The position numbers were made by a program, and so were the translations under genes. A stretch of DNA of 53,280 nt from Escherichia coli (lineage in GTDB: Bacteria; Pseudomonadota; Gammaproteobacteria; Enterobacterales; Enterobacteriaceae), in assembly GCF_003334815.1 (NCBI RefSeq), contig NZ_QOWO01000028.1, one strand, 5' to 3'. The notes beneath the pieces were generated by a model. That model did not search any database, was not told where the DNA came from, and was given only the letters and a program-made list of their open reading frames with translations. This document shows, piece after piece, positions 393 to 20,454 of this stretch (positions are counted from its first letter, which is position 1; the number at the start of each line of letters is the position of its first letter).

Positions 393-424
393 TAAAAAAA
401 TCCCCGCCAAATGGCAGGGATCTT
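393..424 (-). terminator. Intrinsic terminator downstream of cspA
   Basis: Minus-strand GC-rich hairpin (ATCCCTGCC...GGCGGGGAT) followed by a run of T, directly 3' of the cspA stop. Confidence 0.6.
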
Positions 425-448
425 AGATTCTGTGCTTTTAAGCAGAGA

Positions 449-661
449 TTACAGGCTGGTTACGTTACCAGCTGCCGGGCCTTTAGCGCCGCTTTCGATG
501 GTGAAGGACACTTTCTGACCTTCGTCCAGAGATTTGTAACCATCGTTCTGGATAGCAGAGAAGTGTACGAACACATCTTTAGAGCCATCGTCAGGAGTGA
601 TGAAGCCGAAGCCTTTGTCAGCGTTGAACCATTTTACGATACCAGTCATTTTACCGGACAT
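449..661 (-). CDS. cspA: Major cold shock protein CspA (70 aa)
   Basis: Translation [70 protein letters not shown] contains the RNP1/RNP2 cold-shock-domain motifs (KGFGFI, VFVHF). Confidence 0.97.
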
Positions 662-820
662 AGTGTATTACCTTTAATAATTAAGTGTGCCTTTCGGCGA
701 TATGGCGTGCTTTACAGATTTTGAAGCGTTAAAGGAATGTGCACTACGAGGGGTATCAACGATAACTCTTGAAGGGACTTGCCTTACTACACTGCTTTAA
801 TGGTCTGTACGTCAAACCGT
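662..820 (-). promoter_or_regulatory. cspA long 5' UTR (cold-responsive leader, about 159 nt)
   Basis: Established knowledge that cspA mRNA has a roughly 159-nt leader acting as an RNA thermosensor; coordinates are inferred from the ATG position, with an AT-rich promoter/UP region beyond it. TSS not determined from sequence. Confidence 0.5.
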
Positions 821-941
821 TGATGTGCATTAAGCCACGCATTGGCGGGTGATGCAACAATTATTTTTCATATTTATGATTAATCGGTTGGAAAACGGTC
901 CTGTCATCAGGACCGTAAACAGCAATAAAGTGGATAAAAGT

Positions 942-11926: not shown

Positions 11927-12017
11927 GCGGCCTGCTGACTTTCTCGCCGATCAAAAGGCATTTTGCTATTAAGGGATTGACGAGGGCGTATCTGCGCAGT
12001 AAGATGCGCCCCGCATT

Positions 12018-12094
<77 letters not shown>

Positions 12095-12102
12095 AATTCG
12101 AA

Positions 12103-12131
12103 AAGCCTGCTCAACGAGCAGGCTTTTTTGC
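12103..12131 (+). terminator. Intrinsic terminator after proK
   Basis: AAGCCTGCTC-AACG-AGCAGGCTT hairpin followed by TTTTTT. Confidence 0.7.
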
Positions 12132-12184
12132 ATCTGCAGCTCATGAGGATGAGAACCTCCGGGGGCAGGGAGGTTCGACTCGAC

Positions 12185-12270
12185 GTAGGCCTGATAAGAC
12201 GCGTCAGCGTCGCATCAGGCAAATGTGCCGGCCATTGTCGGATGCGGCGCGACCGCCTTATTCGACCTAC
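12185..12270. repeat. REP/BIME palindromic units
   Basis: GTAGGCCTGATAAGACGCGTCAGCGTCGCATCAGGC and a second degenerate GCCGGATGCGGCG...CCTAC unit, typical of E. coli REP elements. Confidence 0.55.
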
Positions 12271-12804
12271 ACGACACACATTTCCCTGCCAAATTTGCGC
12301 CCCATATCTCACTATCCATTAACGGATTTGTGACAGAAACCATTGTCTTTTTTTATATTTGCTTAAATCTTTTTTTGCGTTACTTATGGCTGGCCCTGGC
12401 ATTTTCCGCTGTGCGTTTTAGCGTTCATGGTATTAATCGCTCAGATATCCACCTTTTCCTCAGATTTTTTTCATTAAATGCATAAAACTTAATCACCAAA
12501 TGTTGCTAAATATTAAGCTGATTGTTCTGGTCATGTTGGAGTAGCACAAATTTCTCTGCTGCAAATAGCTGTTTGAAGTTTTTTTAATCTTTGTTTGTGG
12601 ATTCTCACCGTTGGTGTAAATCCCGGTTGGCTGTATTGACGTTTTCACATTCTGTTGACAGATTGTAGGTCACGAGGGGCATTTTATGGAGGATCCGCAC
12701 TGTTACACTGATGTTAATTAGTACGGCATCCCCACCTCATAACGTTGACCCGACCGGGCAAAAAACAAAAAAGGTCAGGCAGCGACAACCCACTGCAAAG
12801 GGTT

Positions 12805-12826
12805 AAAACAACAAACATCACAATTG
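12805..12826 (+). promoter_or_regulatory. CA-rich element in the dppA leader (candidate GcvB sRNA target site)
   Basis: AAACAACAAACATCACAATT sits immediately upstream of the dppA SD/ATG. GcvB is known to repress dppA through a C/A-rich leader site; exact footprint not verified. Confidence 0.4.
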
Positions 12827-12836
12827 GAGCAGAATA

Positions 12837-14444
12837 ATGCGTATTTCCTTGAAAAAGTCAGGGATGCTGAAGCTTGGTCTCAGCCTGGTGGCTATGACCG
12901 TCGCAGCAAGTGTTCAGGCTAAAACTCTGGTTTATTGCTCAGAAGGATCTCCGGAAGGGTTTAACCCGCAGCTGTTTACCTCCGGCACCACCTATGACGC
13001 CTCTTCCGTCCCGCTTTATAACCGTCTGGTTGAATTTAAAATCGGCACCACCGAAGTGATCCCGGGCCTCGCTGAAAAGTGGGAAGTCAGCGAAGACGGT
13101 AAAACCTATACCTTCCATCTGCGTAAAGGTGTGAAGTGGCACGACAATAAAGAATTCAAACCGACGCGTGAACTGAACGCCGATGATGTGGTGTTCTCGT
13201 TCGATCGTCAGAAAAACGCGCAAAACCCGTACCATAAAGTTTCTGGCGGCAGCTACGAATACTTCGAAGGCATGGGCTTGCCAGAGCTGATCAGTGAAGT
13301 GAAAAAGGTGGACGACAACACCGTTCAGTTTGTGCTGACTCGCCCGGAAGCGCCGTTCCTCGCTGACCTGGCAATGGACTTCGCCTCTATTCTGTCAAAA
13401 GAATATGCTGATGCGATGATGAAAGCCGGTACACCGGAAAAACTGGACCTCAACCCAATCGGAACCGGTCCGTTCCAGTTACAGCAGTATCAAAAAGATT
13501 CCCGTATCCGCTACAAAGCGTTTGATGGCTACTGGGGCACCAAACCGCAGATCGATACGCTGGTTTTCTCTATTACCCCTGACGCTTCCGTGCGTTACGC
13601 GAAATTGCAGAAGAATGAATGCCAGGTGATGCCGTACCCGAACCCGGCAGATATCGCTCGCATGAAGCAGGATAAATCCATCAATCTGATGGAAATGCCG
13701 GGGCTGAACGTCGGTTATCTCTCGTATAACGTGCAGAAAAAACCACTCGATGACGTGAAAGTTCGCCAGGCTCTGACCTACGCGGTGAACAAAGACGCGA
13801 TCATCAAAGCGGTTTATCAGGGCGCGGGCGTATCAGCGAAAAACCTGATCCCGCCAACCATGTGGGGCTATAACGACGACGTTCAGGACTACACCTACGA
13901 TCCTGAAAAAGCGAAAGCCTTGCTGAAAGAAGCGGGTCTGGAAAAAGGTTTCTCCATCGACCTGTGGGCGATGCCGGTACAACGTCCGTATAACCCGAAC
14001 GCTCGCCGCATGGCGGAGATGATTCAGGCAGACTGGGCGAAAGTCGGCGTGCAGGCCAAAATTGTCACCTACGAATGGGGTGAGTACCTCAAGCGTGCGA
14101 AAGATGGCGAGCACCAGACGGTAATGATGGGCTGGACTGGCGATAACGGGGATCCGGATAACTTCTTCGCCACCCTGTTCAGCTGCGCCGCCTCTGAACA
14201 AGGCTCCAACTACTCAAAATGGTGCTACAAACCGTTTGAAGATCTGATTCAACCGGCGCGTGCTACCGACGACCACAATAAACGCGTTGAACTGTACAAA
14301 CAAGCGCAGGTGGTGATGCACGATCAGGCTCCGGCACTGATCATCGCTCACTCCACCGTGTTTGAACCGGTACGTAAAGAAGTTAAAGGCTATGTGGTTG
14401 ATCCATTAGGCAAACATCACTTCGAAAACGTCTCTATCGAATAA
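12837..14444 (+). CDS. dppA: Dipeptide ABC transporter periplasmic binding protein DppA (535 aa)
   Basis: Signal peptide followed by a family-5 solute-binding protein; first gene of the dppABCDF cluster. Confidence 0.97.
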   Translation: MRISLKKSGMLKLGLSLVAMTVAASVQAKTLVYCSEGSPEGFNPQLFTSGTTYDASSVPLYNRLVEFKIGTTEVIPGLAEKWEVSEDGKTYTFHLRKGVKWHDNKEFKPTRELNADDVVFSFDRQKNAQNPYHKVSGGSYEYFEGMGLPELISEVKKVDDNTVQFVLTRPEAPFLADLAMDFASILSKEYADAMMKAGTPEKLDLNPIGTGPFQLQQYQKDSRIRYKAFDGYWGTKPQIDTLVFSITPDASVRYAKLQKNECQVMPYPNPADIARMKQDKSINLMEMPGLNVGYLSYNVQKKPLDDVKVRQALTYAVNKDAIIKAVYQGAGVSAKNLIPPTMWGYNDDVQDYTYDPEKAKALLKEAGLEKGFSIDLWAMPVQRPYNPNARRMAEMIQADWAKVGVQAKIVTYEWGEYLKRAKDGEHQTVMMGWTGDNGDPDNFFATLFSCAASEQGSNYSKWCYKPFEDLIQPARATDDHNKRVELYKQAQVVMHDQAPALIIAHSTVFEPVRKEVKGYVVDPLGKHHFENVSIE

Positions 14445-14480: not shown

Positions 14481-14580
14481 TGCCTGATGCGCTCCGCTTA
14501 TCAGGCCTACGAAAATTCTGCAATGTATTGAATTTGCACGATTTTGTAGGCCGGATAAGGCGTTAACGCCGCATCCGGCA
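14481..14580. repeat. REP/BIME cluster in the dppA-dppB intergenic region
   Basis: TGCCTGATGCGCTCCGCTTATCAGGCCTAC and GTAGGCCGGATAAGGCGTTAACGCCGCATCCGGCA in inverted orientation. Confidence 0.7.
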
Positions 14581-20337: not shown

Positions 20338-20405
20338 GAGAGAAAACCCCCGCACGTTGCAGGTATGCACCTGACAACACCACGGGGGCTAATCTTGACT
20401 CTAGA
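20338..20405 (-). ncRNA. rdlD: Antisense sRNA RdlD (antitoxin of the ldrD type I toxin-antitoxin pair); coordinates approximate
   Basis: Established ldr/rdl arrangement places an roughly 60-nt antisense RNA upstream of and opposite to ldr. The minus strand here carries a CCCCCG...CGGGGG hairpin followed by a T-tract ending near 20338. Confidence 0.4.
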
Positions 20406-20454
20406 CCACTCAAGAATAGCCGCGAAACGTTGTCATTACAACACAGGCGGCTAT

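Follow-up and report, generated by a model that had tools for sequence, protein, structure and literature searches.

The tRNA-linked repeats (TLRs) of Escherichia coli were first described in 1978, and K-12 carries 22 of them, spread over ten loci; all finish with 18-19 bp that repeat the 3' end of the preceding tRNA or rRNA (PMC8144298). An early claim of a stringent-response role for rtT has been withdrawn and no function is known for TLRs (PMC8144298). The TLRs rrA, rrB and rrF lie between the dual terminators of rrnA, rrnB and rrnD, where they follow 5S rRNA and finish with a copy of the 3'-terminal sequence of the stable RNA before them; Hfq and CsrA bind them in vitro, whereas a CsrA predictor gave scores below 0.01 for the 19 TLRs linked to tRNAs (PMC8144298).

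In K-12, the tyrT-tyrV locus holds four copies of the Rfam RtT RNA family (RF00391), scoring 133-138 bits, in repeats of 178 bp. These 178-bp tyrT-tyrV operon repeats (rttR / rtT RNA) were reportedly described by Egan and Landy in 1978 and by Bosl and Kersten in 1991. They share with the proK locus considered here a homologous core, GGATGAGAA ... GGTTCGAnTCGAGCG ... UAAUCC, and tandem units whose last 19 nt copy the tRNA 3' end, but their period is 178 bp compared to 168 bp at proK, their internal segments read GAAGG/CTTC (tRNA-Tyr) rather than GGAGG/CCTCC, and their array ends after 3.1 units without a long orphan 5' half such as the one we describe. The hairpin of the tyrT-tyrV repeats equivalent to the one discussed below, GAA(C/G)CTT ... 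AAGGTTC, matches the T stem GAAGG of tRNA-Tyr.

The proK-dppA spacer

The DNA analyzed here, referred to as the window, is a stretch of 53,280 nucleotides whose context is the eptB-proK-dppA region of E. coli. The one tRNA that ARAGORN finds in it is tRNA-Pro(CGG), and dppA starts at 12837, leaving a proK-dppA gap (12095-12836) of 742 bp. The features of this region are as follows.

11977-12005, plus strand: promoter-like site TTGACG-17-TAAGAT, found by consensus scan only and ending 13 nt before the tRNA; from its position, the putative proK promoter
12018-12094, plus strand: proK, tRNA-Pro(CGG) (ARAGORN; Rfam RF00005, 60.7 bits)
12067-12083, within proK: T-arm, GGAGG TTCGAAT CCTCT
12076-12183, plus strand: the single copy left in the window of a 108-bp segment made of the last 19 nt of the tRNA, the terminator and the TLR 5' half (alignment, TRF)
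12100-12129, plus strand: intrinsic terminator of proK, with a 12-13 bp stem, a 3-nt loop and a U6 run
12129-12183, plus strand: probable 3'-truncated TLR of the rpK type, RF00391 model positions 1-51 of 130
12145-12161, plus strand: antisense T-arm copy, GAGG-ATGAGAA-CCTCCG (inverted repeat I1)
12153-12176, plus strand: hairpin GAACCTCC / GGAGGTTC with loop GGGGGCAG, helix 2 of the TLR fold
12169-12181, plus strand: sense copy of the T-arm 5' half and five T-loop bases, GGAGGTTCGAcTC (direct repeat D1)
12188-12267, no strand assigned: BIME of two inverted REPs (RF02564 naRNA4, 69 bits, minus strand; inverted repeat I3)

We read 12129-12183 as the 5' half of a tRNA-linked repeat (Rfam RtT RNA, RF00391; the proK copy is called rpK), cut at 12183/12184 by the abutting REP/BIME, and give this reading a probability of about 0.9. 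The fragment and the first 55 nt of the K-12 proK TLR are 100% identical. TLRs lie immediately 3' of a tRNA or 5S rRNA gene on its strand, and the fragment, which begins 35 nt past the proK 3' end on the same strand, agrees with this; it also contains both boxes of the TLR 5' region, GGATGAGAA and GGTTCGA. When the stretch is cut at 12183, RF00391 is the top match of 4,227 families as a 3'-truncated hit, although at 14.8 bits and an E value of 0.59 it falls well short of the gathering score of 45 bits, compared to 101.3 bits for the single unit of the K-12 reference. In its genomic context the fragment gave no RF00391 match in the Rfam scans, even at E <= 10, and the homology therefore rests mainly on the identity to the K-12 unit. 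The other Rfam matches obtained in context (AbsR25, leader families, RNAI and similar) were rejected, as all of them correspond to the terminator hairpin alone.

The fragment thus shares with rpK of K-12 its locus, the sequence of its first 55 nt, its position 3' of the tRNA and terminator, and the helix 2 hairpin. It differs in stopping at model position 51 of 130, without the four distal hairpins and without the 18-19-nt copy of the tRNA 3' end; the 79 model positions that are missing from its 3' side correspond to a 60-nt unit-specific segment and the 19-nt tRNA 3' end copy. Counted from proK downstream, the 19-mer AATCCTCTATCACCGACCA occurs once in the window, compared to two to three times in the K-12, GmM062 and Escherichia whittamii loci. 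A complete TLR forms a closing helix and five hairpins, of which only helix 2 (12153-12176) can form here, the partner of helix 1 and helices 3-7 being missing from the window. The breakpoint, CTCGA|CGTAGG at 12183/12184, where the partial unit stops and the BIME begins, is found in all K-12-type alleles. Compared with rrA, rrB and rrF, both the element and the second terminator are gone from the window. The feature belongs to a known repeat family, as a truncated unit, and the allele that carries it, with no complete unit (0-copy), is common. Only complete units are annotated by Rfam and PGAP; truncated terminal units such as this one go unannotated and can be misread by att-site scanners.

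The terminator and the REP units that the initial annotation placed in this spacer are both real. The terminator hairpin at 12100-12128 with its U run folds as RNA at -18.2 kcal/mol (z = -4.93); its stem is inverted repeat I2, complementary at 12/12 positions, and it recurs in every TLR repeat unit. A simple terminator scan made no call for proK because the A and U runs pair and consume the T tail, which is a limit of the tool. The BIME at 12188-12267 matches RF02564, a REP-derived family, at 69 bits against a gathering score of 59.5, and the hairpin at 12153-12176 sits outside it. Farther on, at 12790-12836 and immediately ahead of the dppA start codon, lies a CA-rich dppA leader (AACAACAAACATCACAATTGGAGC), which resembles the known GcvB target site. 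Elsewhere in the window, Rfam hits above the gathering score are the cspA thermoregulator (394-821, minus strand), the rdlD antitoxin RNA (20341-20406, minus strand) and, just downstream of dppA, ES036 (CssrF; 14503-14545, minus strand); these three agree with the K-12 map position.

The hairpin, the linked T stems and the fold

The stem-loop at 12153-12176 had been pointed out from the sequence, together with the repetition of the tRNA-Pro T-arm in its 3' arm, and both observations hold. The arms GAACCTCC (12153-12160) and GGAGGTTC (12169-12176) form an exact inverted repeat, complementary at 8/8 positions around an 8-nt loop, and this hairpin is the centroid RNA structure of 12132-12186. The 53-kb window holds two copies of the 10-mer GGAGGTTCGA, one in the T-arm (12067) and the other at 12169, against a chance expectation of 0.07, and the match extends to 12/13 positions when the T-arm at 12067-12079, GGAGGTTCGAaTC, is compared with GGAGGTTCGAcTC (direct repeat D1). 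There is also an antisense relation: 12145-12161 is complementary at 15/17 positions to the proK T-arm at 12066-12082, 62 nt upstream. The hairpin is therefore an antisense T-arm copy paired with a sense T-arm copy, which makes its T-arm likeness part of the design of the family. In a complete TLR, the 5' part of the antisense copy pairs with the copied tRNA 3' end and closes the structure, as seen in the MFE fold of the K-12 unit. Two other ideas on this sequence were rejected: a hammerhead-like core (GAUGAG ... stem ... CGA), since on inspection the essential CUGA and GAAA boxes are missing, and a reading of GAGG-ATGAGAA-CCTC as the relic anticodon arm of a decayed tRNA copy, since the box is conserved beside four different tRNAs and is 15/17 antisense to the T-arm.

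How the repeats relate to their tRNAs was followed across the family in a scan of one genome per species with the pattern GGATGAGAA-N8-26-GGTTCG-N4-GAGCG, in which the hairpin arms were left free. The scan yielded 154 matches in 120 loci, and the nearest upstream same-strand tRNA, at any distance, was Tyr for 60, Pro(CGG) for 32, Lys for 15, Pro(UGG) for 10 and Gln for 2; the 116 matches with a Tyr, Pro, Lys or Gln tRNA on the same strand no more than 1.2 kb upstream were kept for analysis. In 97 of these, three internal T-stem-like segments track the T stem of whichever tRNA (Tyr, Pro, Lys or Gln) is adjacent. At two discriminating T-stem positions, scored for segment a (before ATGAGAA), segment b (after it, as the complement) and segment c (before TTCGA), the cognate stem was matched in 35/36, 34/36 and 36/36 Pro-linked TLRs, in 48/48, 45/48 and 45/48 Tyr-linked TLRs, and in 5/9, 6/9 and 5/9 Lys-linked TLRs (GCAGG stem), respectively, while matches to non-cognate stems were near zero. 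Over ten stem positions, the antisense segment agrees at 9.0 with the cognate tRNA compared to 6.2 with non-cognate ones, and the sense segment, equivalent to 12169-12181, agrees in the main classes of the 97 TLRs at 8.9-9.9 of 10 cognate T-arm positions. The equivalent segments become GAAGG, GCAGG or GGTGG beside tRNAs with those T stems, and they switch even within a class, from GAAGG to GGTGG for tRNA-Tyr in Marinobacterium and, for the tRNA-Lys of Arsenophonus, from GCAGG to ACAGG. In all, four T-stem-like segments keep to the T stem of the neighboring tRNA, and variants of the tRNA that are specific to a species, CCCCCGCC and CTTCTCCC, recur in the unpaired acceptor-strand tail.

These comparisons bear directly on the initial annotation's option of a chance match. 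Widened to the hairpin, this option would make both the T-arm likeness and the hairpin accidents of a G+C-rich spacer. It is true that the 55-nt stretch 12132-12186 folds no better than its own shuffles (z = -0.52) and that inverted repeats of 8 bp are no rarity over 53 kb. However, the 10-mer is found far more often than expected, both motifs recur in each repeat unit, and the segments track their cognate T stems in nearly every Pro- and Tyr-linked TLR; chance is thus refuted by the cross-tRNA comparison, and we regard its probability as negligible.

The pairing itself is conserved. Among 32 diverse TLRs, 93.1% of the cells of seven helices are paired, compared to 84.0% in shuffles and 30-44% when the partners are slid; 15 pairs are changed on both sides, and 0/500 shuffles reach any of five measures. 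Helix 1 is paired at 98.4%, and helix 2, the hairpin of the window, at 88.9% of cells, with a compensatory pair at columns 44/55 (UA 12, CG 10, GC 4). The MFE fold of the complete K-12 unit consists of the closing helix GAGGAU/AUCCUC, this hairpin and four more. As the pairing is conserved with two-sided changes, in agreement with its Rfam status, the TLR is a structured RNA under selection, and covariation in RtT has been reported by CaCoFold. The alignment fits an alternative fold of the four T-stem-like segments, a to d, about equally well, with a:b + c:d paired at 83.6/95.7% compared to 98.4/88.9% for a:d + b:c of the MFE fold.

The layout of a TLR, in which an antisense T-arm copy is followed by a sense T-arm 5' half (positions 49-58), a structured insert and tRNA positions 58-76, raises the idea that the antisense copy acts as a splint for a sense T-arm copy whose loop is interrupted by a structured insert, about 65 nt long. 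We hold this only tentatively and consider it rather doubtful; if true, the orphan half in the window would remain able to pair with the T-arm of proK. In the published fold, segments b and c need not resemble the T stem, and their tracking of it would therefore reflect either an alternative pairing that has a function (as a switch or with the pre-tRNA) or templating or conversion at the DNA level from the local tRNA. The tracking of cognate T stems and acceptor tails is a modest lead on the role of TLRs, and it is the only part of this work that might add to what is known.

RtT-like elements with GGATGAGAA and GGTTCG boxes beside tRNAs were also seen well outside Enterobacterales, in Marinobacterium (two loci) and Amphritea, with further loci in Gilliamella (five loci), a Gastranaerophilales MAG and RUG12268; the two MAG matches are single matches and may be due to chance.

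Sequences that resemble the fragment in carrying a partial tRNA copy just downstream of the gene are the attL/attR duplications that tyrosine integrases produce at tRNA genes, and a vestige of such an event at proK had been offered as one explanation, by which the T-arm-like motif would be an attL/attR-type scar of a phage or island once integrated in proK and later lost. The motif is indeed a real partial copy of proK, and a complete TLR unit has at its end a 19-nt direct repeat that reaches from the T-loop to CCA. This is also the length that integrases crossing over in the T-loop duplicate (Williams is reported to have described this in 2002). The window, however, holds only one copy of the 19-mer and no direct repeat bounding foreign DNA, and what is repeated in it is the T-arm 5' half, in sense and antisense, and not the 3' part that an att duplication would involve. 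Among the sampled rows, none of the inspected loci has an integrase or island beside proK; the neighbors are eptB and dppA throughout, and the only inserts are IS621 and IS1397. The 49-nt 3' half of proK is found in 5,424 copies in 5,423 E. coli genomes, with a second copy in one genome only. In addition, the element, of 168 bp, is found in Enterobacteriaceae at the same place after proK, its core is conserved in the copies beside Tyr and Lys tRNAs, and it shows compensatory base-pair changes, unlike a decaying scar. We therefore reject the integration scar, which is highly improbable on this evidence; the fragment is better read as part of an RtT/TLR, and partial-tRNA signals beside tRNA genes may be readable as TLR parts.

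Copy number at the locus

The initial annotation suspected that the proK-dppA gap is shorter than in K-12 and suggested REP copy-number variation as the cause. The suspicion was correct, since the gap in NC_000913.3 (3707706-3708615) is 910 bp, that is, 742 + 168, and the region is thus not identical to the K-12 reference. The cause lies elsewhere, as the missing 168 bp are exactly one TLR unit and the BIME does not differ between the window and 1-copy and 2-copy strains. A complete 168-bp unit consists, in order, of the last 19 nt of tRNA-Pro (AATCCTCTATCACCGACCA), the terminator, the 55-nt segment with the hairpin and the 60-nt unit-specific segment; it starts within the T-loop and contains a structured RNA of about 134 nt. 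Other E. coli carry one to four such units between proK and the terminal fragment, where the extra units are annotated by PGAP as 'RtT sRNA'. By alignment, exact 168-bp units are the sole difference between the window and 1- and 2-copy strains, and TRF on one such locus (L002) gave a period of 168, 2.6 copies and 100% matches.

A megablast search of 11950-12900 against 5,426 complete E. coli genomes, inspected per locus through summary counts and sampled rows, revealed three states of the locus: contiguous with the window, split by 168 bp and split by two units. A unit-specific segment of 69 nt is present in 2,668/5,426 of these genomes, at 2,956 places and at most four times per genome. It is missing in the remaining 2,758, which belong to several lineages including O157:H7 and B2 strains, so about 51% are 0-copy like the window. 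The junction of truncated TLR and BIME is more widespread, being found in 4,519/5,426 genomes (83%) and lacking in about 17%. Apart from the 168-bp unit, positions 1-25000 of the window are 100.0% identical to K-12 laboratory strains (J53, DH1, ET12567), and they show uninterrupted identity to several non-laboratory strains. Both alleles are present on haplotypes of roughly 100% and roughly 98% identity. We infer that the copy number has changed repeatedly and changes faster than point substitutions accumulate.

In alleles with one to four copies, the 108-bp segment that remains single at 12076-12183 in the window is directly repeated with a 168-bp period and 100% identity. Most likely, one 168-bp period would have been lost by unequal homologous recombination or by replication slippage within this direct repeat; such a loss would regenerate an intact proK, one terminator and an orphan TLR 5' half. 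The 0-copy allele, having no unit-specific segment, could regain a unit only from an outside donor, which is the sole argument for loss as the direction of the change.

A 0-copy window could also be produced by an assembly that collapsed the tandem repeat, the real strain having at least one complete unit. In favor of this, the repeat comprises 108 bp of 100% identity, and two assemblies labelled K-12 MG1655 (NZ_CP010445.1 and NZ_CP107553.1) have no copy where the reference NC_000913.3 has one. Those two could reflect either loss in laboratory lineages or assembly collapse. Against a collapse in the window stand the 2,758 complete-level genomes of several lineages without the unit-specific segment and the fact that ordinary reads span a 168-bp period. 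We consider a collapse very unlikely and retain the loss of one unit as our explanation of the window, which accounts for the variation in length, by 168 bp, of an E. coli spacer that has been well studied.

Some alleles differ in other ways. In E. coli 21AH126 (locus L007, 1352-1900) two complete TLRs, the second with a diverged 3' copy (AATCCTCTGGCACCGACCA), are followed by a single REP, without the truncated third unit and without the BIME. Two insertion sequences, both of which target REP sequences, were seen within the REP/BIME of the proK-dppA spacer: IS621 (IS110 family) in CUVET18-1475 (locus L003, 1829-2809) and IS1397 (IS3 family) in WP7-S17-ESBL-01 (locus L006, 2618-3966). In E. whittamii (offsets 400-800 from the proK start) there are two complete TLRs, and the array is cut just past the third terminator, after which three tandem BIME-like units follow. 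As this cut differs from that of E. coli, REP clusters abut the TLR array at different points among Escherichia lineages.

Role of complete and truncated units

The orphan half lies behind a strong intrinsic terminator, without the pairing partner of its 5' part and without four of its helices, and for these reasons we infer that it is most likely a functionless relic. Its retention in 83% of E. coli genomes is compatible with hitch-hiking, although it does not prove functionlessness. The half might instead be functional alone, with the antisense T-arm copy pairing with the T-arm of pre-tRNA-Pro in read-through transcripts, or with the hairpin serving as a processing or back-up termination signal. 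Its 15/17 complementarity to the T-arm 62 nt upstream and its presence in 4,519/5,426 genomes are in line with such a role, and the 96-nt trailer folds well (z = -4.33). However, the terminator precedes the half, the hairpin has no U run, the junction is missing from about 17% of genomes (e.g. 21AH126 and the IS-disrupted alleles), and the array of E. whittamii is truncated elsewhere, all of which makes a function of its own improbable to a high degree.

A literature search on proK with dppA returned nothing relevant, and RtT is not mentioned in the latest version of the CoCoNuT preprint. The strain table of a K-12 strain with all 22 TLRs deleted (delta-22-TLR) includes delta(rpK) = delta(3706471-3706638), which is 168 bp long (PMC8144298). 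In NC_000913.3, proK begins at 3708616, next to the spacer. With what we take to be an offset of +1,977 from U00096.2 to U00096.3, delta(rpK) maps to 3708448-3708615, directly against proK, so the engineered deletion would reproduce the natural allele of the window. Given that the complete proK TLR is missing in about half of natural E. coli and that the delta-22-TLR strain is listed, the complete unit appears to be dispensable.
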